In this document: piece after piece, positions 1 to 64,000 of the stretch
Layout of the letters: every line of letters starts with the position of its first letter
How positions within the stretch are numbered: position 1 is the stretch's first letter
Assembly (NCBI GenBank): GCA_051294905.1
Contig: CM119371.1
Location: 31,436,001-31,500,000, forward strand
Length of the DNA: 64,000 bases
Origin: Botryllus schlosseri
Taxonomy: Eukaryota
Reading direction: 5' to 3'
Made by a program: the position numbers and the translations under genes
The notes under the pieces: generated by a model
What the model saw: the letters and a program-made list of their open reading frames with translations, nothing else
Told to the model about the DNA's origin: nothing
Databases searched by the model: none

Positions 1-1709
1 TTATTGCAGATGTCTGATGTCTGATTTCAAAGACTACTCCAAGTCGTTTCGACGCATTCCTATCTTTTCAGAGTATCGCAGTCTTGTGATGTTTTGAAAG
101 GAAGAAAACATTATTAAATTGATGGTGATATCAAAAACTAGGCCTATATAATAACTTTTTTACATACTTGTAAAAAGTTAGTTTTACATCTACTTGAGTA
201 GAAATTGACACCGTTAAATCTACTTCTACTTGAGTAGAAATTGACGCCATTACCTCTACTTCTACTTGAGTACCTATGGTATGTACTTTGACCACCGCTC
301 ATGGCGTCACATTGGTGATAGTTATGACCAAACAGCAAGGAATACGTCACAGAACAGGCTTTTTTAGCACTAAAATGCAAAATTTTAAATCACAGATTAT
401 AAAAAATCCTGACGTGAGAGAAAAAAGCGACTTCATATTCGTAATCAGCGTACGGAAATTGACTTAATAGTCATCATTTTGGCCAGAAAAGAAAAATGAT
501 GTCGACCAGTGTTATTAATTACGTGCCCTAAATTTTCTAAGACAACACCTCACTCAGTTCTAACGGTAAATATGATTACGTGGGGTCATAGAGGATGAAA
601 TATTTCTTGCAAAATATATATGCATTGAACAATATTAATGACCGATTCAATCATGAATTATAGAAAATTTTCGAGCGATGAGGACGTTTAAACTCACTGT
701 TGATTACCAATATGAAATCTCGAACACGAGTGAAAACGGTCATTCCAACGAGGGATCTGGCGGGCTTCGTCCCCCAGACGTTTGGTCCAACACCCTATGG
801 AGAGGGCCAAGACCAACTTTTTTTGGGGAGATGATGAAGTGTTGTTTAGACCCTGATGCTGTATAACGTTAACCTCTTCGAAGAGATTAATAGTTTAGTA
901 ATTTTATGTTGCGGATCAGCCGCGGTGAGAAGTTTTTCCGTAGTCCATCATGGATTTCGGATTAGTTCTGTCAGCAGTCACTCACTGAATATTATGATTA
1001 CTTTATTAGCGCTATTTGAATGTTCGGTGTTTTGCTTCTGTACAAATAGTCCTGGTCGTGAAATACCATATAATTTCTCTGTGAAGCAGCTGCTATTATT
1101 TTCCATTGACCAAATAAGGTACAAATTAAAACTTGAGAAGTCATTCATTACGCTATGACATTATAACAGCAGGTAGTACTCAAATCCAGAGTTGGACATT
1201 TAATTGTAATTGTAATTGATCTGAATGTGATAATTACATTTATTCATGTAATTGTCATTGTAATTGTAATTTGATATTTTGAGCAAGGAGAAATTGTAAT
1301 TGTAATGTGATTGGAACATGCAAGAAAGTAATTAAAACTAGAATAATGTAATTGATCCAAATCTCATTCGCATATTTATGAAATAGTCTAATGAACTTTC
1401 ATTGACCATGATTTGCAGCAATCAAAGTTAATGACATGTGGAACTGTCAATACGTCAATTCCTGAATAATGTATGAGGTTCGTTCGATCAAATGATAGGC
1501 TCAAATTTTAGATTACAGCCGTAGACTTATTCGTTCGATCAGGTTTGTAATTAAACTAGAGCATGATTATCTAGAATGAGATATCTTGACACAGGCAGTA
1601 CTCTCTACTATATACTTTTAATATACCTTACATAACTATTATGCACAGTCTTATTTATATGTACATTCAATTTGTATTAGGATGTCATATATTCCACATC
1701 CACAATTAC

Positions 1710-1855
1710 CTTTACAAGATGCGTGCACCTTCACTGGCGTTCCTTCGGGCAACATACAAACGCGCGTACGATCATATGGATCCGTCTTGCGACAGAAGCT
1801 AACACTGGAGTTGTACTCGATACTGCTGTTAAAATATTGCTCGTCCGAACCGTCA
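1710..1855 (-). CDS. Gene 2 exon B9
   Basis: 146 nt, DGSDEQYFNSSIEYNSSVSFCRKTDPYDRTRVCMLPEGTPVKVHASCK; phase-1 donor, so the gene continues left of the window. Confidence 0.88.
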
Positions 1856-4800
1856 CTGAACAAGAATTGCACTTTCCGCATGGCACATGTCCGATTTACA
1901 TAGAATGACAGATATGTCTATATTAACAAATTAAAAAAGGTATTCTAAAAAAGGGTAACAATTTACGTACGGACATTGAGGGTACGAGTCACAGAAATAC
2001 CGATTTTGAAGGCATATCGTTCCGTCCAGACATGGAAATTCATCACCTCGACAAGTAGACCCTGAGAACATGAAGGGGAGATGGATCAACATCTCTTTTA
2101 TGGCTGAGATTGTTATAACAGATTGTTATAACAAAACGTAACTTCGACAAAAACACCTATTTCCCCCATCTCACGTTTTTATATTGCTGTAGCCCAGTCG
2201 TTTTTACCATGTCTCTAGCGCTAACAAGAAAAGGTTTGGAAAATTCTAATATATGAAAAAGGTTCACAGATCAGAAGGCATACACACCGAATAAGAACGT
2301 GAAACTCATATTGACACCATCCCTATAGTATATTCGATTTCATATACTATAATAAATAGGTATATCTGCTGTTGTGACCCAAAACAACACTCGTACGTAC
2401 AGTAGGGTTGTTCAAAATTATTATTTTTTTCAAATGTTCCGTGGCAATTTGATAAAATTGTAGGATTGGTTTGAAAAACGTTTCGGCTCAGTTTCAATTA
2501 CTGAATGTGAAGCTCATAGTTGGAATTAAGCCAAACTTGGTGTGCAACGTATTTTAAACCAACCTAACAATTCTATGAAAAAGCCGTGGAAATTTAAAAA
2601 CAAAAACGGTAATCTTTCAACAACCTGACTTACATGCCTAGTAAAGTTGAAAACTGGGTGCAGTGTTCACAGCATGAAAAAATAATCAAATTCAGCGTGA
2701 ACATACATCATCTAAATCACATTCTCAGTTGATTTACTATATAGTCGCACAAACCAATAAAACTGGGCCCAATGCAACTCCACCGTATCGCCAATCATAG
2801 ACGGGGTATGTACAATTTGTACATTGGTCTCGAACCCGATAGATATGAGTCCGTACCCGGCCTTGATTTGATCCCGAGAACAGTACAGAGAACGGCAATT
2901 AGTTGAGTGGTCGTCGGGTGCGATTCAATGTCGAACTATTCCTAATAGTCAAATCGAATTGACCGGAGTTCGACCTCTATCTAATCTTCTTCAGTACAAC
3001 CATATAACAATTTATAACGTATGGCTACGTTATAAATTGATATTCTACCACACTTGAAGCGAACATTTCTGAAAAGGGGCTCTGGACGAAAAACGGTAAA
3101 GACCGCTTTGTTTTGTTCGTTTGTTTTGTGGTATTCATGGTGCTTGTCGACTACTATGGTCATTTACACCAGGCCGATATTCTTCATTTTGATTCCGTAA
3201 CTGCCGACTTGCAGCACGGCCCACTTCGAGGCTTTTTGTAAGCCACAGCTTACGCGGACGAGGTGGCGAGAAGGAACTTAGTTAAACCTCCGACATTTAG
3301 GTATATGAATTCTGAAGTCGACCTCGGTCGGACTCAAACCCGCAATCCATTGGTGTTGCAGCCGCCGATTATACCACTGCGATATCTCGCCACAAGATCC
3401 AATGGTGTCGCCAACAGCGATGTATCTTGTCTATTTACAAGCTCCCAACTTCGGTCTGCGACTATTATCTTCGACTGTCTCTAACTATTTATATAGGCTA
3501 CTTCAGAGTACTTATTTGCTAATGATTTCCGCGTCTACTTAAAGTTGTATTGTTTTTGTAATATCTCCCAGTAGTCGCTGGTTTTATTATCCGACTCGGC
3601 CAAAATACACGAAGTACAAAGTTAATTACGAGATAGCTCTGTACCTTGTACTGATTTACTTCGACATCAAAATGATGGCTTGGATCATCTCTGTTTGCAG
3701 ATAAGTCTATTCATAAGTAGGTATATCCTAGGGGTGTATTGGAGGCTCGGTCTTGGCGTACCGCCATTAGGGGTGGTGATACACACTTTTCCATGAGCAT
3801 GGCAACCGATGTCCTAATTGATAATAATAAAAGAAGCATGCAGTAGGAAACCTTACCTGCACATATCGTGTTTACATGCGGGATGTGACTCAATGGCAGC
3901 ACACAGACGACATGTGACTTATATCTTGTCCCGACTACGATAACATGTTGTTCCCGACTTCGACAGAAAGTGGTTTCATCGCCATAATTTTCTGAGCTGT
4001 TCCTCAGTGGAGGCTCGTCGGATCCATCCCTATAAGAATTCGCGCCCACCATCAATGCTCATTTATAAGAATAATGTAATATGTAACACCCTCATATAAT
4101 ATGACGGATAACTGTGTGATTGCATAGCAATACAAAATGAAAATGCGTTCACAGTTTGCACAGTGATAATTATGTTTTATAAAATGCTGTACGTACAGGC
4201 AATCTGCGCGTCTATTGCAATACACACGTCCTGCAACGCACTGGGATCCATCAGAGCATGGGAATTGGTCGCGTGAACATGATGAACCTAGAATACATAA
4301 ATGACGCATGTATCAGTTACATATTGGAGGCAATTTAATTCTAAAACACATCAACTATATATCAATCGATGCATTTCGAGGCACAATTGCATCGCGTTCG
4401 ATGTGGGTCGTGCCAAAAGGACACTCAATGGATTCATACACATCAGTTTACGCCCACAGCGCGATGCTTACGATTACGCCGTAACTTATTAAAATAGAAG
4501 AGATCACGCCCCACTCCGGAGAGGATGCTGCATGTTGTTAAAATTGGTGATCGGATATAGCCTTTTTCACCTGCTCTAAAGATTCTTAAAATAGTTGACG
4601 GTTACAATTCTCTGCCGGCCAGGAGAACATATGCGGCCACTGATTGTAAATAATAATCCGGTTTGTATGTCAGTATGAGACGTGAGCGATAGTAGAGTGT
4701 CATTACGACTGAGTCCCGTCGTTTTGGGATCGAATAACCACCGTTGAGTAATAAGTCATTTCGAGTCACCGCAAATTTTGACTCGAGTGACTTCATGTAA

Positions 4801-7800: not shown

Positions 7801-10800
7801 ACTCTTTTTTTTTTCAACTCTTATTTATTCTTAGATGCCGCTACTGATGGACTCGACCATATCGAGAACCTAAATAACAATTGAATGCAACAAATGAAGA
7901 ATTGGTATTGACGACGGGTTCATTGTCAGTGACTCTCAGATGTTCGGAACGATTTTCTCATTGGTAGACTTGATGCGTTCAGAAATTTTTATTGAAAAAA
8001 GTTGTCTTCGATTCACGAAGCCTTCCATATTTATCATAAGTCGAGACCTAGCCAAGACCAATAATTTTAGAATCGTGACTCGAGTTTAATCAGGTCACTG
8101 AAAAAATGACTCGAGTTAAGTCTTGACTCGAGTAATTCCAAGAAAGCTGTCAGTTCGATCACGGTTGTGTAGCTATATACATCGATATACTTGAAAAAGC
8201 TTCTCATTGATGCAAAAGTTGTTACCATCACAAAGTATTTCGTGTTGCGACACAAGTGTCGACGGTAAAACGCAAAGAAAGGATTCCCCTCGCCCTCGAC
8301 AAAACGTAGTGTCGCGATCATACGATACGTTGGATCTCTTCAGCGGTGGCTCGTCGGATCCATCTCTTAACATTTAGATACAGTGAATGTAAAGGGAGAA
8401 GACTCTTCCGTTCAATACACAATCTATACTTACATGCAATCTGGTTTGCCATCACAGAAAGACGATATTGGAATGCACTTCGCGCCATCAAAGCAGGAAA
8501 ACTCATCTTCTTTGCACGATACACCTGTTAACATAAATGCACCAAAACCATATCATCATATACTATAGTACAGTGCTGGTTCTTAACCTTTTTTCCTCCA
8601 GCGCCCCCTTTCAAAAATTATCATGCTCTAGCGCCCCCCACCCCATATTGTAAGGACTGTAATAAAGACAATGGGTAAGAGGGAGGGCCGTAACAGCACT
8701 TCGTCAGTCCCCCTAAAATAACGATTTTATTGGGTACCCGTAGGGCGATAATCCAAACTTCTTGGGGCTTCGCCCCCAAGAACCCCTTCGCGTGATTTCG
8801 ATTGTCAGCAAAGTTTGTGTGACCTGGTCGCCCTAGGCACCAAAAATTTCTGTAATGCATGAATGAATAGCTGGTAATAGCATGTATAAGTCGCTCTCAA
8901 CATTTTATTCTCTCAGCCTACGTAATCCGATTTACCAGTAGCGATGAGTGAGCTGTTGTCTTGGAAAATGAAGACCAGATAACTATTAATTAAACATATT
9001 CGGGCGTGCTCGTTGGTACAAATTATTTCATTGCATGTTGTTATTTTGTTCCCTCTTGTCCGCTATAAAGTCAAAAGATATTGAGAGGCATAAACGTATT
9101 AAAGTAAAGTAAGCACACGGTTCAAAATTGGTATTTCTTCACTGGCAAATAATTTATCTCTGAGGGATGTTATTTATCCTGTGGGGTGCTGATTGTTACG
9201 ACGTGATAATTCGGCACGAGCGATTTAAGCACCTATGGACTGGACAATTAGACTTATATACAGGGGTCTATAAATGGTACTTAAGTACAATTTAGCAAAA
9301 ATAGCTTATTTTATACTCAACCAGAATTTTAAATTATACTAAATTATACTTTTATGAAAAATGGCTCTTTCCTGGCATAGGAGGGTACCATACTGAGACT
9401 TTTATGTGAAAACAAGCTCGTGTTTTGCGTTATTCCACCTCCCGGTGTTTCAAGTTTAATGATCTAACCAAAAATCACACAAGTTTCTACAGCTCTTGAA
9501 ACTGTTTTGCATGACGGCAGCCTTCGAGCGAGAAATCGGTCAGGCTCTCCCGGTAGTCATTCTTTTCAATTCCGATGGCGAAAAAATCCGCCTCCACTGG
9601 TGCCGTCGTTGGAAACACGGTCGAGAGCGTTCCGCAGAAGTCCTTTAGGGTGAGCAGGTTCATACCCTCGAGGACACCCCAAGCGTCCCTGAAGCTGCTG
9701 TCAGGGTCCTCCTCCTCTAACGTAATGCGGAAATTGTCATGGTCTCTGTAAAAGTCCCGCAGTTGAGCGTGCTCCGTCTCGACATCCTCGAGTTTTTCTT
9801 CGGCCCACCCAGCTGCTCGAAGCCGTCCTGACTGTTCGCGAACCAAGTCAGAGACAGCTGAACGACGGAACTTAACCAGTTCCTTTCGGAGCGTCGGTGG
9901 TATCTCGTTGTTTTTGATGTCCGCGTTGCTTGCCAGGAGATCACAGACGCCATGAAGTAGAGTGCAAACCAGCAGGCTGACTCCCTTTGAACAGTTTTCC
10001 TTGTAGCCGCCAAGATTTCATCAAGTTTTGCCTACAAAAAAGTCCTAAAGTCGAGGATGAATTCCTGAACATTTGTCATGGAAACAGAAACTGTTCAACT
10101 CTGACGTATTCTAATTCACCCTGGAAGCCATCCTCATCACAAAGCTCTGTAGTTACTGAACACAAGTCCTTCAGGTTGTCACACAACTTCATCGGCTTGT
10201 CGTGCTGCTCGGTGACCAGAGTTTTTTTTGCCTTGCAGGGACTTGACCACTTTCAGGACCTCTCCGGCGATTACAAGGACAGGGTGTTTGGTGACAATTT
10301 TGAGCTAGTTAAAAAAATGGGGGGGGGATTCTCGATTTTTCACGAAAATGAGAGATTTTAAATGGAATTTTAACCTACTTATTGCTTGAAATCATGCAAG
10401 ATGATTATATTCCATGAAAGAGCCGGTCTCATACTTTGTAATTCTGCCATAAAAAAGTATGAAACATTTTGACGATCTGGGTGGACCTTCCCCCCTTAAG
10501 AACTGATTCAACCAAGCAACCTATACTGCCGTTATATACACTGCAACAGTATATTCCGGTCTTGTCCAGTTCAGCAGGGATCGTCAGCCTTGCCACGTTA
10601 CAACCTTTAGTTGAGATTATTCACTCACTCACTAGAGTTTAGATTATAGCGAGCGAGAAAGATGAAATTTGGAAGCCTATATTATTTGAGCTGCGATAGA
10701 TCACAAAACAGAAAAAATGAACAAAGGAAGAGGAAAATGAGCTGAGCGTGGAATGAAATGAAGCGGAAATCAATCCCGCCGTGCGAGTAAAGCCACACAC

Positions 10801-13800: not shown

Positions 13801-16800
13801 AACTATTGGTGACTAAGCCTATATATCTCACCGTCGCAAAGTTGTCCCGATTGCGGCTCACGACTCGAAGGTAACAAGCAAACAAATCGGCCTTTTCCGG
13901 AACTCCTGGTCCCGCGACAAAAAGTATCATAGCGACTGTACGATGAATTGAAGTTCCTCAACGGTGGCTCGTCCGACCCATCACTTTACATTAGAAAATC
14001 ATAGGGTAATTGAGATTGGTAAGAATTCAGCTGTTCATCATTAGGCACTAGCGCAGTTATTGCTGAACTGTGTGCCGCCACAGATTCTCCGGCGTGCCAG
14101 GACATTTTTGGCAATTGTTGAAAATAATTGTTGAATATTTTATTGAATCTACTCACAAATATTAAATCCTTCCACAAATCATGGACATACTGCATGGAGT
14201 TTCAAACGCACTGCAACAATGTTTTCCAGAATCTTTTGTTAACACCCTTGGGTATAGGTAGGCCTAATCCATTTAAAAGCAATGGATTACGCAATCTTTT
14301 TGCAGGAGAAGAACAGCTCATTGATTTACGAAAGGACCCGCTTTTAAACAAAATTGAATGAGTTTTTACTGTCTACTTTCAAATCCTATACCGTGATCGG
14401 TGCAAAGGAGAGCTAATTCTATAGTCGTTGCAACTTCACAGCTATGTGAACGGGGCCGTAACTGCCATAGCACTATATGCTAATATGAAAGGGTCCAAGC
14501 ACGAAATGGGGCCAAAATCATTTCGCAAATTAATAAAAAAAATAACATTTTTGACAGACAGCATAATCCTAGAATTCTTGACTGTTATAGGGGTACAACC
14601 CCTTCCAGGAAATTCAAATAAATATAAAAAATTACCAAGAATTGACAGTAAAGACACAATAACCGTACTCGGAAATTTAAGAACCAATATAGTAATATCA
14701 GGTTCTTCTCGAGGCAGCTGGAATGCTTTATTCTGCACAATCGGCTGGTTAGGGACAATATGGGACCGTCATTTTGGCTCAGGAATAATATTAACCACGT
14801 GGCGTGAACAATTGAACATGGCGATGAACAATTACGTGCCAAAAATATCATTGGAATCATCACCTCCATCATCTCTACCTGGTGATACGACTCGTTCGTG
14901 AGTCAAGTAACACCTCCTTTCGTTCGTTATGGAAGGAGTGTGTGCGTGTTTGTGAATCACATGTATGAAGCATAGTGATTGAATTACTCGTAGAAGAAAG
15001 GTTGAACACCCTATGGTTCTCAAGCCCATTAACACGCGATAATAACTTATTTGAAGCAGCAGAGTGTCGCGGGCGTTTTAGAATTTTTCTAGTGTGTGAC
15101 AAGCTGAAAAAGCTTGAAAACCACTGCACTAGGGGTTTGTGCAAGTCCCTAACACGTTCTGGTTCGTGTGGAAACTATTAAGTTACGCCACGTCAGATCA
15201 ATCGCTTTTCCCTTTCATTTCTAAGCTTTGCTTGTACATACCAGGTATAGTTGAAGGATTAGTGATTCATGAGAGTATCATATGATTAGTGCCGTCACTC
15301 ATGGCAATGTGACTCTAGTGACATGTTCTATCATGATCTTGAAACACGTTGTTGGAAACATTTTAATAGAGCTGGGGTCATATTTCGGTGCATAAGACTC
15401 ATTCATTTAAACGCAGCATTGTTGGGCTGCTAAAATAATTCTTGAAGTCCAAGAAAAATTCTGCACCACTGAACCCGAATCATTCACAGCTGCTTCAGGG
15501 AACACATCTAACGCGGGAAGATATGCTCGTTATCTCGCAGCATCTAGCTGCTAGCCAGGCTCGTGGTAGTAAAGGTGGAGTGAGACTCAATTCACATTTT
15601 AAAACCGTATGGGCGCAATCTTTAAAGTAAAAAGAAAAACGAAAATCACACTAATAGTCTGCAATGTTTATGTTCGATTTCCTTTCCTGATGCGGCCTCA
15701 TGGCAGTGAGTGATGGGTAAAATAACTTTGGAGGATCTTGGTCAAGTTGTTGACGTTACTATAGCCTCGTTCTTAGTGGGGCACAAGGATTTATCAACTG
15801 GGGCTCATGAACCCCTTGGGAGTCAGCGGACTAGGTCTAAGGGGTCCCTGACAGGCCAGTCACGCAACTGCAACTATAAACTTTTATTCTCCTTTAAAAC
15901 GTTTGCTCTTACTTCTGACTTGCGTCCTAATTTGATCTTATTTAATTTTCCATCGAATGGATTTTCATGTAATATACTATATCGCAATATGAGGCCATGA
16001 CAAAATTGATAAGCTATTTAATCACCAGCTTTTCCAGATTGCAAGATGAAGGTATCCTAGCAATTACAAAAGAGATTTTAGCGTACTGCGCTAAGACAGA
16101 CGTTAAGAATCGCTGGTGTAGAACATGCCAAGATTCGCTTGCGAACGCTAACTTCCGGATTGTCAAGTATCGCATACCAAACAAGGATATAAACTGAGCG
16201 TTCGTATTATTCTTGTTAGACACTTCGCATTATTCATTTCCTATTATGACAATTGTCGTCACAAAGAAGTTACTGTATCTTTACCACTAAGACGAGAGCA
16301 TTTTTTTAGCTTTTGAGGGATAATTACGCTGCAGATACCCGAGTAAATATATTACGTGAAAGCAAAGCTGCCTTCTGAGGAAATTATTACTACAATACCT
16401 GCTTACCTGCAATCTCGATTTCCATCGCAAAACATCCAGTTTGGGATACATGTCGAACCATCCGAACACGTGAACTCGTCAGTTTTGCATGACGAACCTT
16501 GATCGAATTTGATACATGTTGAGGGAGAGTTCCTTAACCTTGGTTAAATTTACTTTATAATTGATAGGGTACTATTTTTAATTTACAGCAATAGAATAAA
16601 CCAATTCGACCATAAGTAGCTCTTATGACAGAACATAAAGCAAGCATAGAAGTTGTCTTGCAAAAACTCTTTCATATTGTCCCACGCTATATTCCACATC
16701 AAAGAATTGATTTGGCGGAAAACACCACGCCATGGACTACGAGAATCTAGCATAGGAGTGTCATGGACAGAGTATTCGCACAAACTTTTTCGGTCAAATT

Positions 16801-34800: not shown

Positions 34801-37800
34801 TGGGCTTTACTTGACTCTTATGAAAATTAAATGTTGATACTCCGTGAAAACAGCCCCGAAATTCCTCAGGCTATCTTCCTAATTGGAGGACTAAATTACT
34901 TCTAATTGACAAGCTGGAAATAGCGAAAAGTAAGTAAGTAGATCACAAAATATTGCAGAGTAGAAGTAGAAGTAGCAAAAATCAAATCTACTTTAGTAAG
35001 TAACAGAAGTAGAAGAAAACTACTGAGTACTTCGAAAAAGTAGAAGTACTTCGTTACTGACCACCTCTGCATATGATCCACGCCTCAGAGCTGAATCGCC
35101 TGTATAAGCGGTAACGATGTTGCGAGACCTGGTTCGTGTGAGCATCATAACAATAGGTTGGTTATGAAGACGAACTTTAACACGTAGCCTACCTCTGACA
35201 ACACCGTTTCGTCATGTGTATGCGTGTACTGGAAAATGATTGGGGAATAAGTATTTTCCTAAACGCATTGGTATAATATTTACATTGTGCCGTTGTGCCG
35301 AAAATATTATGGTGGTAGAATCACTTTATCCAAAAGTGTAGATAGTACTAGCCAATGAGCTCGTCAACTGTTCAGACTACTTTCATGCACGAACAAGAGT
35401 ACCCCAACGTAACTTTTGAGTATATTTAATTTTATTGATAGATGCTGCATTCTGAAGCCCGTTGTCGAAATTAAAAGGAATCCAGATTGTTTGTTTCGAA
35501 GATTCGCTATTTTATTTGAATTTTTCGATTGGAGTACTATAGGAAAGCGCTTTTTGGCTTTCTTTCCAGCATCTGTCGGCATGGTAAAATATAATTGGTT
35601 TATTAGTAATCAATAATCGAGATAAGTTTGGTGCCATTAGTAAGATCAATCACACCGTTATAATTGGAATGTATCTTTTGAAATTTTAGAATACCTCGAT
35701 CGTAAAGCTTAAAGGTCAACTATATGACCAAAACAACTTCGGCAGATTCTGCTGTATTTTTCCCGCTGATTTCAATAACAGGTGTCTTAACTGCTAAAAT
35801 TAAGTATTTTCTGAGATATCGAACTGCAAAAGTCGCATAATGCCACCACCGGCAAAAGCACTAGTAAAATCGCTGAACCGTCTAATGCAGGACGGGTTTA
35901 GGTGCTGCTGCTGTAGTTTAGCCAATGGAGCAGGTTAATGTCAACATCTGCAGAGGATATTGGTATCAGCTGATTGCGTTGCACGGTGTAGGTAAATCTC
36001 ATTGTGACACCCGTGAGGAATTATCATGTAGAGGTAAGTCCTTGGATGATATATACGATTTGAGCGTCCTCGGACGACGAGAATACCCTCATGTAGAAAG
36101 TATTGGGCCTACATTTTCAAAACAATATCCGAAAATATTTAGGTTCATTTCGATATGACTATACTATTCAATTGTATATTGAAGCTATGTACCTCCAAGA
36201 AGCTGTTTAATACAATGGTATGCAAGGCATGTTATGTTTGCCAGTAATCAAAGCTTGGAGACTGATGCACATTAGGGCTCTTCAAAAATGACATTTTTTC
36301 TCAGATCGTACTGGCTACTTGATAAAATTGTTAGGTTACCTAATTTAAGCCTACACACAAAATTTGGTTCAATTCCAGCCAGTAACCGCTTTGCTACAGG
36401 AGAAGAAACTTTCTATTTATTATATAAAAATGAATAATAAAAAAATAAAAAATTTTCTGTTCACCCCATGAAAGTGTTAGGCTGTCAATAGAAACGATTC
36501 TCACAAAATTTGGTTCAATTCCAACCAGTGGAAGCGGAGTTATTGCCGTCGAAAAATTTGGATTTCAATGAAATAGTATTTACGGTGAGCACAACTATAA
36601 TAAATAAACAAAGAATCGGTCTAAATGACAGCAACCAATGATGACCATGACGGTCGTGTCATAACCAGGCCCATTTTGTTTACCAGAAGAACGGAAGATA
36701 TTGACATTTGATTATGAAAGGCTGTTGATCTCATGTATGTAAATAAGGTGTTTTCACTCATAATGTTAGATTTGTACTACTTATCTTCATTTTTGGTTGA
36801 AGTTGTTTGATCTAAAAAATCTGTATTTTATCGAACTCTGCACTTATGAAGAATTCCGGCAGTTCCATCACGCATTATGGCAGAAATAGTTTAAATTTGC
36901 TTTCCTACATTTTCGGGTCAAAAGTGTCTGTCCTTACTAAGTAGCTTGCCAAGAATGGAGAAAGAATGTTAAACAGAAGCAATTGTTGGCTGGCAACACC
37001 AAAGCTGTGCGTACACTACCGGTGCGTACAATGTTGTCGACTATATCATAATTTTTCATCATGTGCTTCCTAATATAAGAACCAATGCCCACGCAGTCTT
37101 GATTCAGTTAGGACAGTGGTTCCCAACCTTTTTTCATTAACGTACCATTTCGATATTTTATGCAGAGCTCGCATACCAAGTTACGCGCACATCAGTAGGC
37201 CTACTCTCACCGAAACACAGGCTGTTCTGATATCGTTCGAGACTTGGTTCTAGTACGCAAATCCATCTTATTAGCAATTCTTGAAAGTGATTGAGAGATG
37301 CGTGTCCTCTTCCGCGGCAAAACTTGGTATTGGGATCATAACTGATGTTGCTGTATCTCAACGGCGGCTCGTCGGATTTGTCTCTAAATGAAAATGATGC
37401 ATTCAATCGACGTTGTCTGGATTACCTGCAGTAATTTGCAAAGAGAAATTACCAAGATCCTAATGCTTGAACCTACAGCAATACAAAAAACTCGAAAAGA
37501 TTTAGTCGCTTGACTGCACTGTAGCCTGGTGGTTCCCAACGTTTTCGACTATACGCCTGCTTATCAAGCTCGACACATATTTCGCTCTCCAATATTTACG
37601 TATTCCAAAGAGGACACATTATGTCACATATATACGAGGAACTTATTCACGTAACTCCGATCGCTGGTGCATTGACTACTTTCCATTACTTGACCTTTTT
37701 ATAGTCAACTTTTTCGTCATATGCAGAATAAACCGTCTTCACGCGCATTTTATGACCATGGTAATTAAATATATCTCGTCGGAAGTTCTAATATCTATGC

Positions 37801-40800: not shown

Positions 40801-43800
40801 GTAACCAAGTCACAAGGCTCCGAGTCACAAGTCAATCTCAGTTTTATAGTTTTGACTCGAGTCAAGTCGAGTCATTTTCAATTCACCACCGAGTCAAGTC
40901 CGAGTCCAAGTCACCGAGCAGAGGTTCGAGTCCGAGTCATGGTATTATGACTCGAGTCGAGTCCAAGTCATGATGTTGACTTCCCAGTTTACAGTTAAAG
41001 GCTTGTTAAATCTACTTTTTATGACTCTGTTTGGTGATATCGAATGGTTCACATTTATAATATACTAATTTTCGTCATTTTCAGCAGTTTGTGGACGTGT
41101 TTTCAAGTACCAGTAACAATAGACGAAATCCCAATAGTGTGATTACTGTACTATTCCTCGAAATTACAATGAAACGTCGGTCTTGGCCGTCTGAGTCTCT
41201 AGTCATATGACTTGGTTCGAGTCATGCACAATGACTCGAGTCCAAGTCGAGTCAATACACAAATTGACTCGAGTCGAGTCGAGTCATTTCCGTATTTTGA
41301 GAAAATGACTCGAGTCAAGTCGAGTCATCTGAAAAACGTGACTCGAGTCCGACTCGAGTCGAGTCATGACTCGAGTCATTACAACCCTGCTGGCAACGGT
41401 AATTGCGCATGTGTCTCCGTGAATATGTAGGCTGTCATGGATATAATTTTGAACAAATGAGTCTATTCCCCACCAGAAGCCATTGAATTCCCCACCGTTT
41501 GGGAACCACTGCTCTAGAGGGTGACATCGCTTGCATTCACAACAATGACACAGGACATGGAAAAATAGTGACGATATTACGAGGAAACGCCTACCGGCAA
41601 TGGGCTTCTCCGTCGCAAAACAAGGCGTTCATCACACACCCAGATCCATCGAAACAAGCAAAGCTGTCTGTAGGACAATGGGGACCTGGAACGTAAGTCA
41701 CAATGACTTGAGTCTACTCCTATGCTGGTTTTCACGATTTGATCGTTCTATTGCTAACGCCGAACATAGGTATAGGACGTTGTATATTTTGATATTATGT
41801 TTTCGCGGCATTGATATACAGTTTACATTATACCAGGTCACATGATATATGCATACACACACACACACACATACACGATGTGTGCATATGCACACCCTCC
41901 ATGCCATCCTTGTGTTACTGCCAGATTTAGTAATCAGGTATACTGTCTGATCCGGCCGGGGATCGAACCCACGACCCACCTATCAAGACGTCGGACTCTC
42001 TGCCCTTACCCTATCTTGTGAATCTATCGCCTGGGAACTGTGTGGACCAGAGTTGGATCAATTACAATATTTTAATTCAATTACAATTACAATTACTTCC
42101 TTGCATGTTTCAATTACATTACAATTACAATTACTCAATGCTAAAAATATCAAATTACAATTACAATTACTGTTAAACATGTATTTAATTACAATTATAA
42201 TTACAATTACAATTACTTTTAAACAGGTGATTGATTCAGTAAAGAGGTGTGCTTTGAAAACCGTAGCGACGTAATTAGCAACAATCTCAAGCTATTCATG
42301 TTTCATTCCTGATATGTAGAATACCCTTTAAAAAAAAATCGAACATATTCGAACTATTCCTAATCATGAGTATTGAAAACTACATGCACAGAAAATTGTT
42401 TCAAGTGACTGTTAAGAACCAAAGGTTTGAGCGACTAACAGCGAATAGGCTACGACAGTCAATGAAATGTAATCAAACGATTAGGCTACTCAGAGCTGAG
42501 TGAGGATAATGAAATGTAATTGGTAAGGCGTCACCAATAAGGATGATACCGATAAGGTGCGTGAAATGAAAATGAATGCAAAAGGAAAGAATCTCCTGAT
42601 AACTAAGAATTACAATATTTTGGTTCGCATTTATATTTTCACTTGCTCGGAAACTGTTAGATTGCATATGATGAACATTAGGGTGCGAAAAGCTTCTGGC
42701 CCCAGTAAACTTGGCCAATATTGGAGGTAAGATTGGGATAACATCTCTGCAAAAGCGTGATCAAGTTTGATGAAGCCTTAGTTGAAAACTTGAATTTATT
42801 TTGGCTTTTGTTGCGACAAGCCTCGGTACTGGTCAGAGATTTAAAAAAAAACTTTGACCGTGGTGTAGGAAATGGTTCAGCACAGGTTTCAGAAGAGTTT
42901 ATTGGCTGTTCAACCATTTTTTAAATATTAAGATTTAGTTTAGCTCACTGGTTCTCTAACTTTTTTAGACACGCCCCCCTTTATGACAGTGAATATTTCG
43001 TGCCTCTTATCGTCATAGCACACAATGAAACCAAAAAGTTAGCAATCCTTACGTATATTTTCATGGTATGGAAGGTTATGACTGTTGATGAGAGAATTTT
43101 GCAACACGAAATTCAGACTATAGACCGAACAACAGCCATAAAACGGATGTGAATCGGGCCAAGCGCGGAAAAGATTTCAGTTCACCGGAGCGTCGCGCCC
43201 CGTTCAGATGCTTTCACGCCGCCAAGGGGGCACGCCCCTAGTTTGCGAGCCACTGGTTTAGCCTACATTGTTATTCACAAAGTTTTTTGTTGCTACTGAA
43301 GTATGGGAAACAGTTTAGCGTGACTGAATTATCTATAGCTATAACGCAGCAGGCATAAAACAGGCATAAAACATAAATAGGCTAATTATTACATGTGGTG
43401 CCTGTTTACCAAGGCCTTAAGGCACCTCGTCGTCATCCTGGCTCGTACCGGATTTTCACTGGTGCGACGAATAAATGATTGATTAAATGATTATTTTATG
43501 TTGTGATTGTCAGGTTTCCATGAAAATGTAATTGAGATTGTAATTGAGCAAAATTTTGATCAAATTACAATTACAATTACAATTACACGAAATAGAAATA
43601 CTTCAATTACAATTACAATTACATGAAAAAATGTAATTAATGACATTCAGCTCAATTACAAATTACAATTGATCCAACTCTGGTGTGGACTGTGGAGTCG
43701 AAGACAATTTGTAGTCATGGTATGATGTTATAGTGGCGTAAACTTGAGATTGAACGACAGCAAAAATCTTTATCTCATACTTTTACAAAATCCTTCTTTA

Positions 43801-46800
43801 TCTTGTATAAACTGAGTTGTGACTTCGCAAAATCGATTGTCTTTGCGGCATATGATGTCATCTGTGTCGTTTGAAACGCTGCTGTCGTGATATAGCTCGT
43901 CCGAACCGTCTCTGAATCACAGAAAAGAAATAGAAAAAATACTGATACGCCACTCTCGTACATTAATATGACGTAACCAGAATTGTATTGGCGTTGTTTA
44001 ATAGTTATCATGAATCCATATGGATACATTTAAAAAGAGTATTCGGTTGTTGCTACGGCGTAAGACTTTTGTGAATGACAAAGATATTTTTGCCCATTTT
44101 TCGCATTCAGGACCACTGCTGCGTAAGCAGAAAGAACCGCATTTTATATATCAAGGGCATGGCATCGTTGCTTTAATCAAATCGATAGAGACAGAAAGTA
44201 CTTTTGTTTCTCCCGTATGTGGTGCTGCCACAGTATATCAAGGGTCTGCGATTCGTGTTATGATTTGGTTGAAGTACGGTGCATGCCCTTCCTGCCTCAA
44301 TCCTGTTCATGCTTGGAAACGGCAGTGTTTTGATCGCGAGTGGCTGTGTTCTGTGTTCTGTGTTCTGGTTTCGGGTACGGTATCATTATTGAGCTATGGA
44401 GTATTCTTGTGACTCAAGTGGTGACATATCGAATATCAATCGAGACGATGAAAAAAACTTTATCACGACTATGCTTATAGAAAGTCAGTTGGAAATTTTA
44501 AATTCAGCGTACTTGATCAATTCACACATATCGGTGGAGCCAAAAAGGCTTCGCCCGACTTTGATCACGTGACTGGTTGCACATATAGCAACCCGATCGA
44601 TTGGTTAACAAGTTACTCTGTTTTTGCGTCTGTGATTCAGGTAAAGTTATTATTCAGAAACCTAATCCCGGTTTTACGGTTGCAAACGTATCAAAATCTC
44701 GCGACGAAAGTCACTTGAGACTTGACTAAGTTACATGTGTTCTCTAATAGCTACGCATCGCATTACTTCCGGTGCAAACTGTGGATAGGTTTACACGGGT
44801 TATAATGACTCGATTAAAGATTTTCTGAGAGTAAATTTGAGAACTTTACCACAAGCACAAGCTTGTCAGCCAGTTGATATTTGCTGTGAGCAATCACTCA
44901 CTTGGTGAAGTCGTGCAAATTAGACTATTGGACAATATACGCACTGACAGTTCTTTATCCCGTCACAAAAAGAAGACTTCGGCACGCACTGCGATCCGTC
45001 CGCACATGGAAATTCGTTATGTATACACGTCGAACCTGGATAGATATACACAACATTGATGAAAGTCCCACCTGCACTAGATTTTACGCAGTTGCATTAA
45101 ATGCAAGAACGAAATGGATGCAGTATATCGGCAAGGCAGCGTAAACATTTTTCGAACTATTCATTTGTTCGAACGTTTGTGGGTAATTCGATCACACGAG
45201 CACGTGATGTTTTTATATATATGCGTGGCAAGAAAATGAGCCGTGCTATAAGTCGAAATCACAGGAATGTTAACACGTACTCAGCGTGATGTGGAAAGAC
45301 GATATATATGTCACAAAATCATAAATAACAAACAACAACATGCCAACGGGCTCTGGTTATAGCTCATGGGAATTCGCGCATGCAAATACAAGTCACAGAG
45401 CATATTGGCATAGATTGATTCAGGTCTCTTCATCAATTTTTCAAAATCTCCCCGATTTACATTTCTCTCATTCTAATACCAAACCTTGTCAAATGATTCG
45501 TACAGATGGTGAGCGCCCGTACAAACGTACATTAGACCAGGACTCTTCAACCGGGTGTATTGTACACCATGGGGTGTACCAAAATTTTAAAACGGTGTAC
45601 CACTCAGATGGGGTGTACTGGGGTGTAGCAGACGTGCTTTCAAAGGGACCAATGACTAGCTATAACCACAATAAATAGGTCAGTTTCTGCTTTTTAGAAC
45701 ATGTTGACCGGGTTTGGAATATCATACAATGTTCATATCCGCTGTTCGCAGCTTGTAAACTACGTTCCTTTTGTATTGTCACGTAAGCGAATGCTTCTCA
45801 TCATATAAACGCTGGTATTGGACTTATTGGATCCTTTTGGAATGGAACAGGTTGAAGTTGACACGTGTTCATCTTGCGAAATCTGTCTATATACTCTATA
45901 TTGAATCTTGGGGAAACCGCTGCGATAGCTCAGACATTTTGAATTGATGAGTTCTGCGAGATAGTTATAAATAACGGAGTTTACATAATTGCAGAGGGAT
46001 CCATGAGGTCGAGTTTGAAAGCCATTGAGCTCGATGCGGTACGGTAACGTAGAGCCCTGAATAATAGTAAGCATTTCAAATACGTTGCAGCCTTGCTCAT
46101 CCTTATTTCAACAGGCCAGGGGTGGCCAATCTGTAGACGTAAGGTTGCGTGCAGTCGTTGAACAATAATTATGCGTCCCTTCACAAGTAACTAAAATAGA
46201 ATGTGTTGGCGTCTGTCAATATGCAACTTGAATTAACGAATTGGTTCCCAAATCTTTGAAGGGTTTTAATTAAATTCGTAAATTTTATTCACGCTTGGCG
46301 TGATTCAGGGTGACTTTGATTTAACCTTTTTCCTTCTAGAGTGTTAACTGAGCCCCACCGTACAAATGCGAGCTGCAGAGGAAAGTGATGCACCCCATAA
46401 CGAAATACCAAGTCGAAATCGTGTGCGTCTCACGAATGAAAATTTTTGTCGTATGTTTGCGCGATTCCAATATATATTTCGACTATACCAACAATCCTGA
46501 TTGGAGTTCTAAAAATAAAGACATGCAACAAAGTGATTACTAAAACCGGACGATGCATCATCAATAATTTTGAGCCCAAAATTTTCGAAGATACCCCCTC
46601 CACCATCTCCAATGGTTATTTCCATCAAGGGGACGAAGAAAGGATAAATATTTTACAGTAATATATGAAACAACCCATTATCGACGAAACAAATTTTCCT
46701 GTAGCTATGCGCGACTAAAAAGAGTTTCCAGATAACTTTTCCAATAGCATTTACACTCGCGATTTTGGTGCATGTATCGTAAGCATGCAGGGGTGTTCTG

Positions 46801-48270
46801 CTTCTACAGTTAAAAACCTTTATACGCAAGGTATAACTCAAGAAATCAGTGATGGCACAGAACACTACAAGGGTTCTCCGCGGTGCGAAGCTCCCACTAG
46901 CCAATTTAACATGAGTATATGACGTCCAGATTGCCCATGAAGACTTTCCGCGGGAATGCGGAATGAAGTATGTAATGGAAATACGGCGGTAAATAGCAAA
47001 TAGGTTTAACACCCCTGGATTACGCTTGCCATACCGAATCAATGTGGTATGTGGTCTGGGGTGTAGGCTACGAGTCTCGAGTAAACACTGAAGGGGTGTA
47101 CCACGGCAAAAAAGGTTGAAGAGCACTGCATTAGACTGAACTTCAGTATACGATAGCTACTAACCTACATCTTCAGTAGGCCTACATCAAGATATCGTAT
47201 ATCTCACTCAAGCAATAGTGAACATATGATCAGACTCACCATCACAAAGCTCGTCCTCTTGTGCACGCAGCTGAGATGGCAATATGCAGATTCTTGGAGT
47301 GAATGAATCCTTCCTTCTGCGGCATACAGTCGTATTACCGCTATAGTTGGCACTGACAGTCCAATAAGGTTCATCTGATCCATCGCTGTTGAGAAAAATC
47401 ATTTCCATTTTTTCACCACCAAGTGGATCTTATAACATTGTTCAGGGATGTGCAACTCGCGGCCCGCGATCACAAAACTCGTCAAAGTTAATATGTGTGC
47501 ACGCGCCTCACGCTTTTCCTTTAGTTAATCACGATCCTCAGCGCGCCTTTAAGGAACAAGACCATATAATGACCCGGTAAAGTACGACTGAAAAGGCTCT
47601 TACGTAATTGCATGGAAAACTTTCAAAAAGGACAGCCGAAGGATCAAAATCGATCACCGAGGATCAAGGCAGGCGCACTTAGTCGTTTCGTAATCCTGTA
47701 GGCTACATAGTGTGTATCGCCTAGTCTTAAAACGTAAATATTATATAACAGGTCATTTTTGTATTTTTAGGTGTATTGAGATGTCGTACTTCATTGACAT
47801 GTGTCATCGTCATCGTTGGATCGTGGACCTCGCTAATACAGGAATATATATGTGCGGCCCGTGATGTCGCTAGCGTATTTATATCAGAATCACTTGTCAA
47901 ACAAGGAACACAGTGAACACCCATGGTGTAGTTGAATGTCGTGGTAACACTATTCGAAAGTTATTTCCTCACGAATATTGCAATTTGAATGGACACCGCA
48001 TTTGGCAACGCTCACCTGCAATCATTCGAACCATCGCAATATTTCTGCATCGGAATGCACCTTGTCTCGTCCTTGCATTCAAATAAGTTGTCCGGACACG
48101 TCAAACCTGTATCGAAGGTATTGTAATGCTCATCATGATAATAATAAACAAGATTCAATGCAAGTCCAACCTTCACAGCAAGTGATTAATACCATGACTG
48201 CAGTTCCAATGTAAACATGAAACATCCTCCATTTTGTAAGTGACCTTTGGATATTCTGTGCACGTGCCAT
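1710..48270 (-). CDS. Gene 2 (spliced, 3'-incomplete): secreted or membrane protein with nine tandem variant LDLa modules; possibly the N-terminal part of a second LDLa-GPCR
   Basis: Nineteen GT-AG exons join in one open frame (2287 nt, about 762 aa): 48171-48270, 48016-48106, 47240-47385, 44945-45035, 43781-43911, 41595-41685, 37211-37383, 29702-29792, 27496-27641, 25962-26052, 16814-16974, 16407-16497, 13832-13983, 8434-8524, 8226-8365, 4197-4287, 3857-4029, 1971-2061, 1710-1855. Repeated motif C-x4-F-x-C-x-DG-x2-C-x6-CDG-x3-C-x-DGSDE. No stop codon is reached inside the window. Confidence 0.88.
1971..2061 (-). CDS. Gene 2 exon A9
   Basis: 91 nt, GSTCRGDEFPCLDGTICLQNRYFCDSYPQCP. Confidence 0.9.
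3170..3385 (-). mobile_element. tRNA-derived SINE remnant
   Basis: Minus strand tcgcagtggtataatcggcggctgcaacacc...gcgGGTTTGAGTCCgacc (A-box-like and B-box-like). Confidence 0.45.
3857..4029 (-). CDS. Gene 2 exon B8
   Basis: 173 nt, DGSDEPPLRNSSENYGDETTFCRSREQHVIVVGTRYKSHVVCVLPLSHIPHVNTICAG. Confidence 0.9.
4197..4287 (-). CDS. Gene 2 exon A8
   Basis: 91 nt, GSSCSRDQFPCSDGSQCVAGRVYCNRRADCL. Confidence 0.9.
4963..5582. mobile_element. Foldback MITE (hAT-like), about 280-bp inverted arms
   Basis: Termini TAGGGCTGTTCAAAAA / TTTTTGAACAGCCCTA; perfect 8-bp TSD ATGTGCAT; related single arms at ~36273-36545 and ~2403-2600. Confidence 0.92.
5641..6984. mobile_element. Degenerate hAT (Buster/SPIN-like) element or MITE nest
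   Basis: TIRs CAGGGGTGGGCAAACT / AAGTTGCCCGCCCCTG; plus-strand remnant LLVLSGSTYICEKTFSTTK (~6591-6647) resembles the hAT C-terminal GSTYxCExxFS motif. Confidence 0.65.
8226..8365 (-). CDS. Gene 2 exon B7
   Basis: 140 nt, DGSDEPPLKRSNVSYDRDTTFCRGRGESFLCVLPSTLVSQHEILCDG. Confidence 0.9.
8434..8524 (-). CDS. Gene 2 exon A7
   Basis: 91 nt, GVSCKEDEFSCFDGAKCIPISSFCDGKPDCI. Confidence 0.9.
9261..11069 (-). mobile_element. hAT-like transposon with GC-rich transposase remnant
   Basis: Perfect TSD CTTATATA; CAGG/CCTG ends; ORF 9487-9846 LKDFCGTLSTVFPTTAPVEADFFAIGIEKNDYRESLTDFSLEG resembles the hAT C-terminal P-x-T-x-x-x-E-x-x-F motif. Confidence 0.8.
11253..12228 (+). mobile_element. Non-autonomous hAT family 'TAGGGATG' (GTTCAC/GTGAAC-rich), copy 1
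   Basis: TIR TAGGGATGTTGTGAAC / GTTCACACCATCCCTA; perfect TSD ATAATTAT. Confidence 0.9.
13832..13983 (-). CDS. Gene 2 exon B6
   Basis: 152 nt, DGSDEPPLRNFNSSYSRYDTFCRGTRSSGKGRFVCLLPSSREPQSGQLCDG. Confidence 0.9.
16407..16497 (-). CDS. Gene 2 exon A6
   Basis: 91 nt, GSSCKTDEFTCSDGSTCIPNWMFCDGNRDCS. Confidence 0.9.
16814..16974 (-). CDS. Gene 2 exon B5
   Basis: 161 nt, DGSDEPPLRNSSYDYAPNATFCRRRADYYTTAQVRSICVLPPNVMPLQDDLCDG. Confidence 0.9.
17598..20918 (+). mobile_element. 'TAGGGATG' family copy 2, interrupted by nested insertions (~18210-20636)
   Basis: Homology to 11253-12228 over 17598-18208 and 20637-20918. Confidence 0.82.
21034..22930. mobile_element. hAT-type MITE nest
   Basis: TIRs CAGTGGTTCTCAACC / GGTTGAGAACCCCTG; TSD GCCGGAAC/ACCTGAAC; contains GACTCGAGTC-family and CAGGACCGTAAC-family pieces. 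Confidence 0.7.
21682..21705. repeat. (TA)n microsatellite
   Basis: Direct reading. Confidence 0.9.
24394..25832. mobile_element. Non-autonomous hAT element
   Basis: TIR TAGGGTTATGAC / GTCATAACCCTA; perfect TSD ATGGCAAC; inserted into the terminal repeat of an older element. Confidence 0.85.
25962..26052 (-). CDS. Gene 2 exon A5
   Basis: 91 nt, DPTCLKREYPCSDGSACIPRQNFCDGKNDCR. Confidence 0.9.
27496..27641 (-). CDS. Gene 2 exon B4
   Basis: 146 nt, DGSDELYRNHSIARGNNLTACNGRAVFIDLPRNVCMVTPEAAEILRCR. Confidence 0.9.
27717..28680 (+). mobile_element. 'TAGGGATG' family copy 3
   Basis: Full-length homology to copy 1; both TIRs present. Confidence 0.88.
29702..29792 (-). CDS. Gene 2 exon A4
   Basis: 91 nt, GSTCSYGEFSCSDGSQCLPNSMFCDGIVQCN. 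Confidence 0.9.
30931..31112. mobile_element. Short TGCGCA-rich MITE
   Basis: TIR CAGTGTTTCCTC / GAGGAAACAATG; perfect TSD CTGCTAAG; relatives at 18884-19063 and ~20560-20636. Confidence 0.85.
31546..32554 (+). mobile_element. hAT derivative with transposase C-terminal remnant
   Basis: TIR TAGGGCCATTT / AAATGGCCCTA; perfect TSD GTAATTGC; QTSASVERSFS motif in ORF 32171-32356; AAAGTCATA subterminal repeats. Confidence 0.88.
37211..37383 (-). CDS. Gene 2 exon B3
   Basis: 173 nt, DKSDEPPLRYSNISYDPNTKFCRGRGHASLNHFQELLIRWICVLEPSLERYQNSLCFG. Confidence 0.9.
38760..39351 (-). mobile_element. Penelope-like retroelement 3' fragment (GIY-YIG endonuclease remnant and 3' region)
   Basis: FKCHCDSGYVGRTSKRLQGRINQY...GKHLLDNPAYAKNYSDDGFRVL...LIKIH; inverted duplication 39263-39295 / 39319-39351; hammerhead motif downstream. 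Confidence 0.8.
38796..38839 (-). ncRNA. Minimal type I hammerhead ribozyme motif (Penelope-associated)
   Basis: Minus strand reads gctgacgatt-ACCC-CTGACGA-G-tatcagc-C-GAAA-ataa-TC-GGGT: intact core, ACCC/GGGT stem I, UC cleavage site, located downstream of a GIY-YIG remnant. Confidence 0.7.
39719..40493 (+). mobile_element. 'CAGGACCGTAAC' non-autonomous family
   Basis: TIR CAGGACCGTAA / TTACGGTCCTG; near TSD TTCCCCAC/CCCCCCAC; other copies at ~33123-34078, ~21124-22010, ~8683-12366 (interrupted), and in reverse at ~19616-20555 and ~510-830. Confidence 0.85.
40794..41389. mobile_element. MITE with GACTCGAGTC palindromic subterminal arrays
   Basis: TIR CAGGGTTGTAA / TTACAACCCTG; perfect TSD CTGGCAAC; related motifs at ~4780, 8070-8135, 21070 and 22465-22550. 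Confidence 0.9.
41595..41685 (-). CDS. Gene 2 exon A3
   Basis: 91 nt, PHCPTDSFACFDGSGCVMNALFCDGEAHCR. Confidence 0.9.
41850..42010 (-). mobile_element. tRNA-derived SINE remnant
   Basis: Minus strand ggtaagggcagagagtccgacgtcttgataggtgggtcgtgGGTTCGATCCCcggccgg (B-box-like) with a downstream (TG)n tail; no complete cloverleaf. Confidence 0.55.
42048..43682. mobile_element. hAT-type element with (AATTAC)n subterminal repeats
   Basis: TIR CAGAGTTGGATCAATT / AATTGATCCAACTCTG; perfect TSD GTGTGGAC; nested MITE 42946-43255 (TSD GTTTAGCT/GTTTAGCC); short relative at ~1187-1365. Confidence 0.9.
43781..43911 (-). CDS. Gene 2 exon B2
   Basis: 131 nt, DGSDELYHDSSVSNDTDDIICRKDNRFCEVTTQFIQDKEGFCK. Confidence 0.88.
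44945..45035 (-). CDS. Gene 2 exon A2
   Basis: 91 nt, GSTCIHNEFPCADGSQCVPKSSFCDGIKNCQ. Confidence 0.9.
45538..47128. mobile_element. hAT-type element
   Basis: TIR CAGGACTCTTCAACC / GGTTGAAGAGCACTG; perfect TSD CATTAGAC; internal ~46340-47070 is homologous to ~7000-7700. Confidence 0.85.
47240..47385 (-). CDS. Gene 2 exon B1
   Basis: 146 nt, DGSDEPYWTVSANYSGNTTVCRRRKDSFTPRICILPSQLRAQEDELCDG. Confidence 0.9.
48016..48106 (-). CDS. Gene 2 exon A1 (LDLa N-half)
   Basis: 91 nt, GLTCPDNLFECKDETRCIPMQKYCDGSNDCS; cag| and |gtgag. Confidence 0.9.
48171..48270 (-). CDS. Gene 2 first coding exon, signal-peptide-like
   Basis: ATG at 48270; MARAQNIQRSLTKWRMFHVYIGTAVMVLITCCEG (basic N-terminus, then hydrophobic core); phase-1 GT donor. 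Confidence 0.7.
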
Positions 48271-51408: not shown

Positions 51409-51596
51409 TCATCGGTCAGTCATTGCCACAGCCTCGGTCTCGCCCGGAGCTGGAGCCGGTAAAGGTCTTCTGATTCTCTTTATCTTGTTCCAAACGATTT
51501 CAGAAAGATTCGAATAGAGCAGCGGATTCAACGCACTATTTATGGGCACGACGAGCAAACCTGCCGGCAGATACACATCTTTCGGTATGTCAACTC
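51409..51596 (-). CDS. Gene 1 TM7 and C-terminal exon
   Basis: GVDIPKDVYLPAGLLVVPINSALNPLLYSNLSEIVWNKIKRIRRPLPAPAPGETEAVAMTDR*. Confidence 0.92.
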
Positions 51597-54500: not shown

Positions 54501-54762
54501 CGGGTTTACGTCAAGAATCATGTTATTTAATCGAATCCACTCAGTAGATCTGCAAATATATTCGTAGAACTTAGAAAAGGGTTATCCACATGTTCTACTA
54601 TGCGTACCCTTCTTGGGGCTTGGAAGTAGTTTGAATAAGGTTGAGCCACTGTTCCATATACTGAATATCTTGATACTTCAACACCTTGAACATTCGGTTT
54701 TCGTTGAACCTTTAATATACGAATATAGGCTATATGTGCATACAAGTTCAATACATTTGATT

Positions 54763-54798
<36 letters not shown>

Positions 54799-63954: not shown

Positions 63955-64000
63955 CTGCAATGCAGACAGATCGTCATTAATATAATAGAAGCGTCATAAT

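Follow-up and report, generated by a model that had tools for sequence, protein, structure and literature searches.

The 64,000-nt window of Botryllus schlosseri genomic DNA analysed here (assembly GCA_051294905.1, contig CM119371.1, positions 31,436,001 to 31,500,000) contains a gene built of nine tandem two-exon cassettes, each encoding an eight-cysteine (8-Cys) variant of the LDLa domain, and, upstream of it on the same strand, an LDLRR-GPCR-like gene with seven-transmembrane (7TM) exons. We consider it roughly 60% probable that the array gene provides, in one spliced frame, nine 8-Cys modules, each an LDLa joined to the remnant of a second LDLa, and that these make up the N-terminal part of the ectodomain in an ascidian LDLRR-GPCR, with the 7TM region encoded beyond the window. 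Coordinates are positions within the window, and the array is on the minus strand.

Organization of the array gene

A signal-peptide exon and nine pairs of exons, A and B, join into a frame that stays open for 762 codons, and all 18 introns, including the one after the signal-peptide exon, are of the GT-AG type. Each A exon is exactly 91 nt long, is bounded by AG and GT, and runs from phase 1 to phase 2. The B exons (131-173 nt) run from phase 2 to phase 1; all nine start with one base and the motif D-x-S-D-E, and their third Cys is followed two codons later by the closing phase-1 GT donor. A preliminary description of the locus had claimed the constant 91-nt A exons encoding LDLa C1-C5 and the D-x-S-D-E start of the B exons, and both are borne out in 9/9 cassettes, with gaps of 6, 5, 6 and 5 residues between C1 and C5. 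A strict pattern scan recovered exactly nine A and nine B exons on the minus strand, 0 on the plus strand, and 0 in 30 shuffles, and profile searches of the window gave no tenth cassette.

The coding part of the signal-peptide exon (48171..48270) begins with an ATG at 48270, is in the array frame, and ends at a weak phase-1 donor, from which a 64-nt intron leads to A1; it sits just outside the range 1710..48106 given earlier. Residues 19-31 are the most hydrophobic 13-mer among all 762 amino acids. The first cassettes are A1 (48016..48106) and B1 (47240..47385), A2 (44945..45035) and B2 (43781..43911, with the shortest C6-C7 loop, six residues), A3 (41595..41685) and B3 (37211..37383, C6-C7 loop of 19 residues), and A4 (29702..29792) and B4 (27496..27641, C7-C8 gap of 11). 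They are followed by A5 (25962..26052) and B5 (16814..16974), A6 (16407..16497) and B6 (13832..13983), A7 (8434..8524) and, after a 68-nt intron, B7 (8226..8365), A8 (4197..4287) and B8 (3857..4029), and A9 (1971..2061) and B9 (1710..1855), which ends in an intact phase-1 GT donor. All A exons were recognized by pattern, frame, and the PF00057 profile, and all B exons, which encode the D-x-S-D-E motif, a linker, and C6-C8, by pattern and frame. No further exon after B9 was found in bases 1-1709; the gene probably runs off the window at base 1, and any 7TM or leucine-rich repeat (LRR) region would lie beyond. The units are 32-59% identical to one another, and the repeats are therefore old.

Four sequencing runs, none of them recorded as RNA, were compared with bases 1-17100; one of the runs, X2, is presumed to be RNA. 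An 825-nt X2 contig holds a 173-nt piece (3856-4028) equal in length to the predicted exon B8 and without mismatch. Two further X2 contigs carry B5 (16812-16975, a piece of a 537-nt contig with 0 differences) and B6 (13829-13985, a piece of a 278-nt contig). The depth of X2 in the bin of A6 fits exon-only cover, and bin depth also marks A7, B7, A8, and A9; the 825-nt contig has a depth of 6.85, three bins imply an exon depth of 6.8-6.9, and in two bins within introns the depth is zero. The lengths of the contigs and the depths of the bins are consistent with consecutive B7-A8-B8-A9-B9 splicing. Different splicing of the B exons could have restored a canonical sixth Cys; the X2 contigs listed do not restore one, and none of the nine A-B introns contains an alternative exon that would do so.

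The eight-cysteine unit

All nine units contain eight Cys in 74-88 residues, with successive gaps of 6, 5, 6, 5, 21-22, 6-19, and 11-13. The C7-C8 gap is 13 in eight units and 11 in one, and the C6-C7 gap is the most variable (6-19). From the E of D-x-S-D-E to the next Cys there are 15 residues in units 1, 2, 4, and 9 and 16 in units 3 and 5-8, which agrees with the spacing and Cys number reported earlier. The units keep the C1-C5 spacing of PF00057 and its F-x-C2, C3-I-P, C4-D-G, and D-x-S-D-E features. However, PF00057 has six Cys in about 40 residues and the unit eight in about 80, and a sixth Cys a few residues after SDE, as in canonical LDLa, occurs in 0/9 units.

The linker between SDE and C6 holds all 13 predicted N-glycosylation sequons of the array within 140 residues, and the other 589 residues hold none; shuffling within the linkers gave a mean of 3.35 sequons and did not produce 13 in any of 20,000 trials. 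In every unit the LDLa half is acidic (net charge -2 to -6) and the C6-C7 loop basic (+1 to +4). The acidic calcium-ligand positions, which we take to be the D after C4, the D before C5, and the D and E of SDE, are all kept in 4/9 units and three are kept in the others; over the 40 units described below, four are kept in 13 and three in 23. The Trp two residues before C4, with which canonical LDLa grips ligand lysines, is absent from 9/9 units, one of which has Tyr instead. Lipoprotein-type binding would thus be less likely than binding through the variable loop.

PF00057 matched all nine A exons at positions 1/2-28 of its 37 (E 1e-7 to 5e-5), and eight passed its curated cut-off, with the ninth at 23.8 against 24.1 bits. 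Pfam gave 0/9 B exons above any cut-off; MARF1_LOTUS and DM9 scored below theirs and were rejected as B-exon families. Over its whole length the unit matched no Pfam family in this search, in keeping with the possibly undescribed domain of the preliminary description. A PDB sequence search returned 0 matches at E up to 10, and an Atlas search returned ordinary LDLa clusters only, with scores under 0.9. The literature searches, which covered few subscription papers, turned up no account of an LDLa variant with eight Cys.

Relatives of the unit in other ascidians

A B-exon profile search over 1.84 billion representative sequences gave 15 hits, of which 11 were kept; the other four (P0011, P0013, P0015, and P0016) carry repeats of a different kind that match by chance, and they were set aside. 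Of the word-indexed protein searches, those with the B alignment and with the third transmembrane (TM3) exon of the upstream gene returned one match each, and the search with exon B8 returned none. Four of the relatives are multi-unit proteins with a total of 31 units of the same 8-Cys spacing: P0003 (Styela clava XP_077966781.1, LOC120342772; 13 units), P0004 (7 units), P0009 (Styela clava XP_039271181.1, LOC120345702; 2 full units), and P0012 (9 units). Both Styela proteins are annotated as 'uncharacterized protein' and share the unit and its spacing with the window gene, and both models are without 7TM. Styela is the one named genus among the relatives, which would fit a stolidobranch ascidian as the source of the window. 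P0003, P0004, and P0012 also begin, like the window gene, with a signal-like stretch followed directly by the array. In P0003 the 13 units are arranged as a superrepeat of four units, which is recent; its loops measure 8-9 residues, and 6/13 linkers carry sequons. The window's nine units, in contrast, are old and divergent, and their loops measure 6-19 residues. In P0009, about 750 low-complexity residues precede a lone B-type segment and the two full units; this is probably a chimeric gene model. The remaining seven relatives are single B-exon open reading frames (ORFs) that share the exon boundaries, are 42-58% identical to the nearest window unit, and have a C7-C8 gap of 13 throughout and loops of 10-27.

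Among 40 units selected by Cys pattern (nine from the window and 31 from the relatives), the C3-C4 gap is 6 in 40/40 and the C7-C8 gap 13 in 33/40, and the C6-C7 gap ranges from 6 to 21. Judged by this pattern, the module is common to other ascidians and not special to the locus. The glycosylation sites are a different matter. The earlier view of a sequon-rich linker holds for the window gene; as a trait of the module it does not, for a linker sequon is present in only 13/31 homologous units outside that gene, and by predicted sites the sequon-rich linker characterises the window gene more than the module.

No Ciona protein was among the hits kept. Ciona sequences were taken from the supplement of PMC2396169, and the number of models is a lower bound as it derives from word searches. 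In that material a single copy of the unit, here called a hinge, occurs in at least eight models; all seven named below are on the 14-strong list of LDLRR-GPCRs of the same source.

Origin of the extension

The seventh unit of P0004 extends further, with the sequence C7-x7-C-DG-x3-C-x6-C that a regular LDLa has in its C-terminal half; 13 residues lie between C7 and C5' (primes denote the Cys of the second LDLa). In this register, C8 of 33/33 gap-13 units falls on the C5-type Cys, and none of these units has a Cys at the C4-type position. In the supplement, the same complete form is seen in ci0100145358 and ci0100153351, and the gap-13 form in ci0100137355, ci0100142353, ci0100149830, ci0100150116, and one further model; ci0100144713 has a C7-C8-type gap of 20 (spacings counted by eye). 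In three of these gap-13 models, C8 is followed by E-D-[GK]-S-D, the motif found after C5 in LDLa. The sixth Cys of the Ciona sequences stands in G-F-x-C, which resembles F-x-C2. A hydrophobic residue stands two before C6 in 29/40 units and directly after C7 in 38/40, compared with 39/40 two before C2 and 40/40 after C3.

The transition forms (P0004 unit 7, ci0100145358, and ci0100153351) and the same 13-residue spacing suggest that the extension is a worn-down second LDLa that has kept C2', C3', and C5' as C6, C7, and C8. The loss of C4' together with C6' would be expected of the canonical pair C4-C6. Each unit thus probably combines a calcium-binding LDLa with what is left of another, fused LDLa. 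Of the distinct extended LDLa proposed earlier, the conserved 8-Cys module is supported, and no defined family was found to match it from end to end. A separate fold in which C6 is simply delayed is not supported, since the transition forms point to a fused, degenerate second LDLa.

In the available part of PMC5897026, the canonical LDLa disulfides are C1-C3, C2-C5, and C4-C6. By Cys parity, each unit should form four disulfides, and the fourth disulfide proposed earlier is retained in this sense; the transition forms disfavour its pairing through a delayed C6. We infer the bonds 1-3, 2-5, 6-8, and 4-7, where C4-C7 follows by elimination once the canonical 1-3 and 2-5 and the old C2'-C5' pair (6-8) are assigned. 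With these bonds, the sixth Cys would probably not be the canonical C6 in a delayed position. AlphaFold2 models of two homologous units, not of the window's own joined unit, had pLDDT (predicted local distance difference test) values of 48.7 and 56.1, too weak to test the bonds. Foldseek with these weak models gave nothing at E <= 0.001, only weak LDLa rows with a root-mean-square deviation >= 7 Å, and the best Z in a wide fold search with a weak model was 2.4.

The neighbouring gene and membership of a receptor family

The upstream gene (51409..63955, minus strand) has a stop near 51410 and a start beyond 64000, and about 3.1 kb separate its end from the start of the array gene. Its variant LDLa exons, several of which end in D-E-C-x-C, lead directly into 7TM exons; no LRR exon was seen in it, the last LDLa exon leading straight into TM1. 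Its Pfam matches are weak and confined to single exons (7tm_1, E 0.014; LDLa, E 0.008 and 0.05), and its TM3 exon is 58% identical to P0002, a carrier of PF00001. P0004 has the order signal peptide, array, and then a block whose best match in the window is an exon of the upstream gene (63848-63699, minus strand; E 1.7e-9).

According to the available parts of Kamesh et al. 2008 (PMC2396169), the LDLRR-GPCRs of Ciona intestinalis, with 14 published models, combine LDLa repeats with an RXFP-like 7TM region and lack LRRs, which is also the build of the upstream gene. In the supplement, one hinge, D-E..C..C-x-L-P..C, stands ahead of a conserved C-F-x-C..C-D-G..D-E-C-L-C block. In the passages concerned, the Ciona models have one hinge each, mostly with a linker of eight residues; the window gene, in contrast, has nine tandem copies with a linker of 15-16 residues that carries glycosylation sites, and these copies are cut short after C8. 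The text of that paper calls most repeats classical and does not describe the hinge in the passages concerned. RXFP1, RXFP2, and the snail receptor GRL101 likewise have LDLa in the ectodomain of a related 7TM protein, but they carry LRRs and canonical LDLa (available parts of PMC4561518 and PMC2396169); neither was found in the array gene or the upstream gene as far as the window covers them.

The array gene begins with a signal peptide and LDLa-type repeats, as LDLRR-GPCRs do at their N-terminus. The build of the upstream gene, the block match of P0004, the hinge before that block in Ciona, and the kept donor of B9 make it quite probable that the array gene is a tandem paralog of the upstream LDLa-7TM gene, with its own 7TM region outside the window. 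We regard the unit as a probably undescribed ascidian variant module within a known orphan receptor family.

Other elements were noted in the introns. A composite repeat of about 1 kb, with copies 75-91% identical, occurs in introns of both genes and in both orientations (about 11250-12160, 17590-18190, and 27730-28800, and inverted at 52860-53770). In the B6-A7 intron, about 9261-10800 is covered by X1 and X2 contigs at a depth of 20-47 and about 97% identity, possibly a low-copy transposon; a 176-residue ORF inside it (9487-10017, minus strand) has no Pfam hit. A 640-nt element at 4953-5592 has nested long inverted arms (184 nt, 96%; 144 nt, 92%) and resembles a foldback or miniature inverted-repeat transposable element, with a related copy near 36265-36544. 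A decayed ORF at 38984-39322 (minus strand) has a weak GIY-YIG match (E 0.034, below the cut-off) and is perhaps the remnant of a retroelement.

Discussion

Several observations weigh against the interpretation of the array as fused double-LDLa modules at the front of a receptor. Profile-profile comparison of the extension with LDLa found no homology (probability 1.7% and 2.5%), so the second-LDLa origin rests on the spacing and the transition forms. The surroundings of C8 resemble those of C4 more than those of C5, with a hydrophobic residue before it in 37/40 units and D or N after it in 21/40. In the better AlphaFold2 model (pLDDT 56.1), C6 and C7 lie on the two hairpin strands and C8 at the end of a helix, so that a C6-C7 bond is possible. 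One of the four predicted acidic calcium ligands is missing in 5/9 units, and a multi-unit array together with 7TM in one sequence was found in none of P0003, P0004, P0009, and P0012. As for transcripts, exon-exon joints are absent among the X2 matches listed, and the raw-read runs X5 (6% read) and X9 (13% read) gave almost no exon cover. Contigs of the fourth run, X1, over bases 1-17100 are intronic pieces, and the results from X1, X5, and X9 carry no information on expression.

Two other disulfide arrangements have to be weighed. The first Cys of exon B might be the canonical C6, delayed by a glycosylated insert and bonded to C4, with C7-C8 closing an unrelated appended element. This satisfies parity and agrees with the profile-profile tests, in which the extension showed no statistical homology to LDLa, and the aromatic residues just before C4 (9/9 units) and just before C6 (6/9) could pack together. 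In the complete forms (P0004 unit 7, ci0100145358, and ci0100153351), however, it would leave a C3'-C5' pair, which is not LDLa-like, and the LDLa-like G-F-x-C at the sixth Cys of the Ciona sequences also speaks against it; we consider it rather unlikely. The other arrangement bonds C8 to C4, either as an old C4' shifted by a six-residue insertion or with the hairpin stapled by C6-C7. The L/I-C-D/N context of C8 resembles F-C-D at C4, the weak model places C6 and C7 on facing strands, and the C6-C7 loop tolerates any length from 6 to 27. Because C8 matches the 13-residue C3'-C5' spacing exactly and is followed by E-D-x-S-D in Ciona, we judge this arrangement unlikely, and 6-8 with 4-7 is preferred. 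The hairpin that holds C6 and C7 in the weak model suggests that the variable loop is a hairpin tip whatever the topology.

At the level of the gene, the product could lack a 7TM region and be an LDLa-array protein that is secreted or crosses the membrane once, such as a soluble binder or a decoy split from the receptors. P0003 (13 units) and P0012 (9 units) end without 7TM, read-through of the B9 donor meets a stop after 19 more codons, and the 825-nt X2 contig extends 196 nt past B9, the place of these last 196 nt not being among the matches listed. Nevertheless, the phase-1 donor of B9 is good and sits where the other eight B exons have theirs, the ends of P0003 and P0012 resemble the result of a frameshift or of reading into an intron, and P0004 continues into the receptor-type block, which makes a secreted product, the main alternative for the gene, rather doubtful. 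It has also to be considered that the symmetric cassettes are shuffled by alternative splicing into a repertoire of receptor isoforms, as every A and B pair has the same phase, 1, at both ends, and skipping one would keep the reading frame. The introns contain no duplicate alternative exons, and the X2 lengths and depths fit consecutive splicing of B7 to B9, an argument that is weak because contigs drop rare forms; altogether, such shuffling appears very improbable.

We propose the following course of events for the receptor with an array of fused double-LDLa modules. An ancestral hinge of two LDLa, present once per Ciona receptor, would have lost the junctional Cys C6 and C1' and, at a later stage, C4' together with C6'. 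The C6-C8 and C4-C7 bonds would then tie both halves into one domain with a single calcium site. As each A and B pair runs from phase 1 to phase 1, exon duplication may have multiplied the hinge to arrays of 7-13 in styelid ascidians. The array would form a long, multivalent, calcium-stabilised putative binding arm on an orphan GPCR, stiffened and spaced by glycans at the predicted linker sequons, and the variable hairpin loops might set what is bound. The conserved membrane-proximal LDLa block may relay the signal to the relaxin-receptor-like 7TM region, a role modelled on RXFP1/2, whose LDLa has been proposed as a tethered activator (available part of PMC4561518). Most expressed sequence tags of the Ciona family come from blood tissue and haemocytes (available part of PMC2396169). 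A speculative and decidedly unlikely extension is that the fused double-LDLa hinge serves as an antibody-like display, in which a fixed scaffold of disulfides and calcium presents a basic, free hairpin loop 6-27 residues long. With nine or more such displays in each receptor, and with many paralogs, blood cells would have a diversified recognition repertoire wired directly to G-protein signalling.

The module is annotated by Pfam through its first half only and appears to be lineage-restricted, within a receptor family that has been known since 2008. The graded series from a complete second LDLa through the loss of one disulfide pair and truncation to tandem amplification would represent a route from two old domains to a new one. 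The module, being small and carrying a variable loop, would be suited to expression and testing within this family of orphan receptors.

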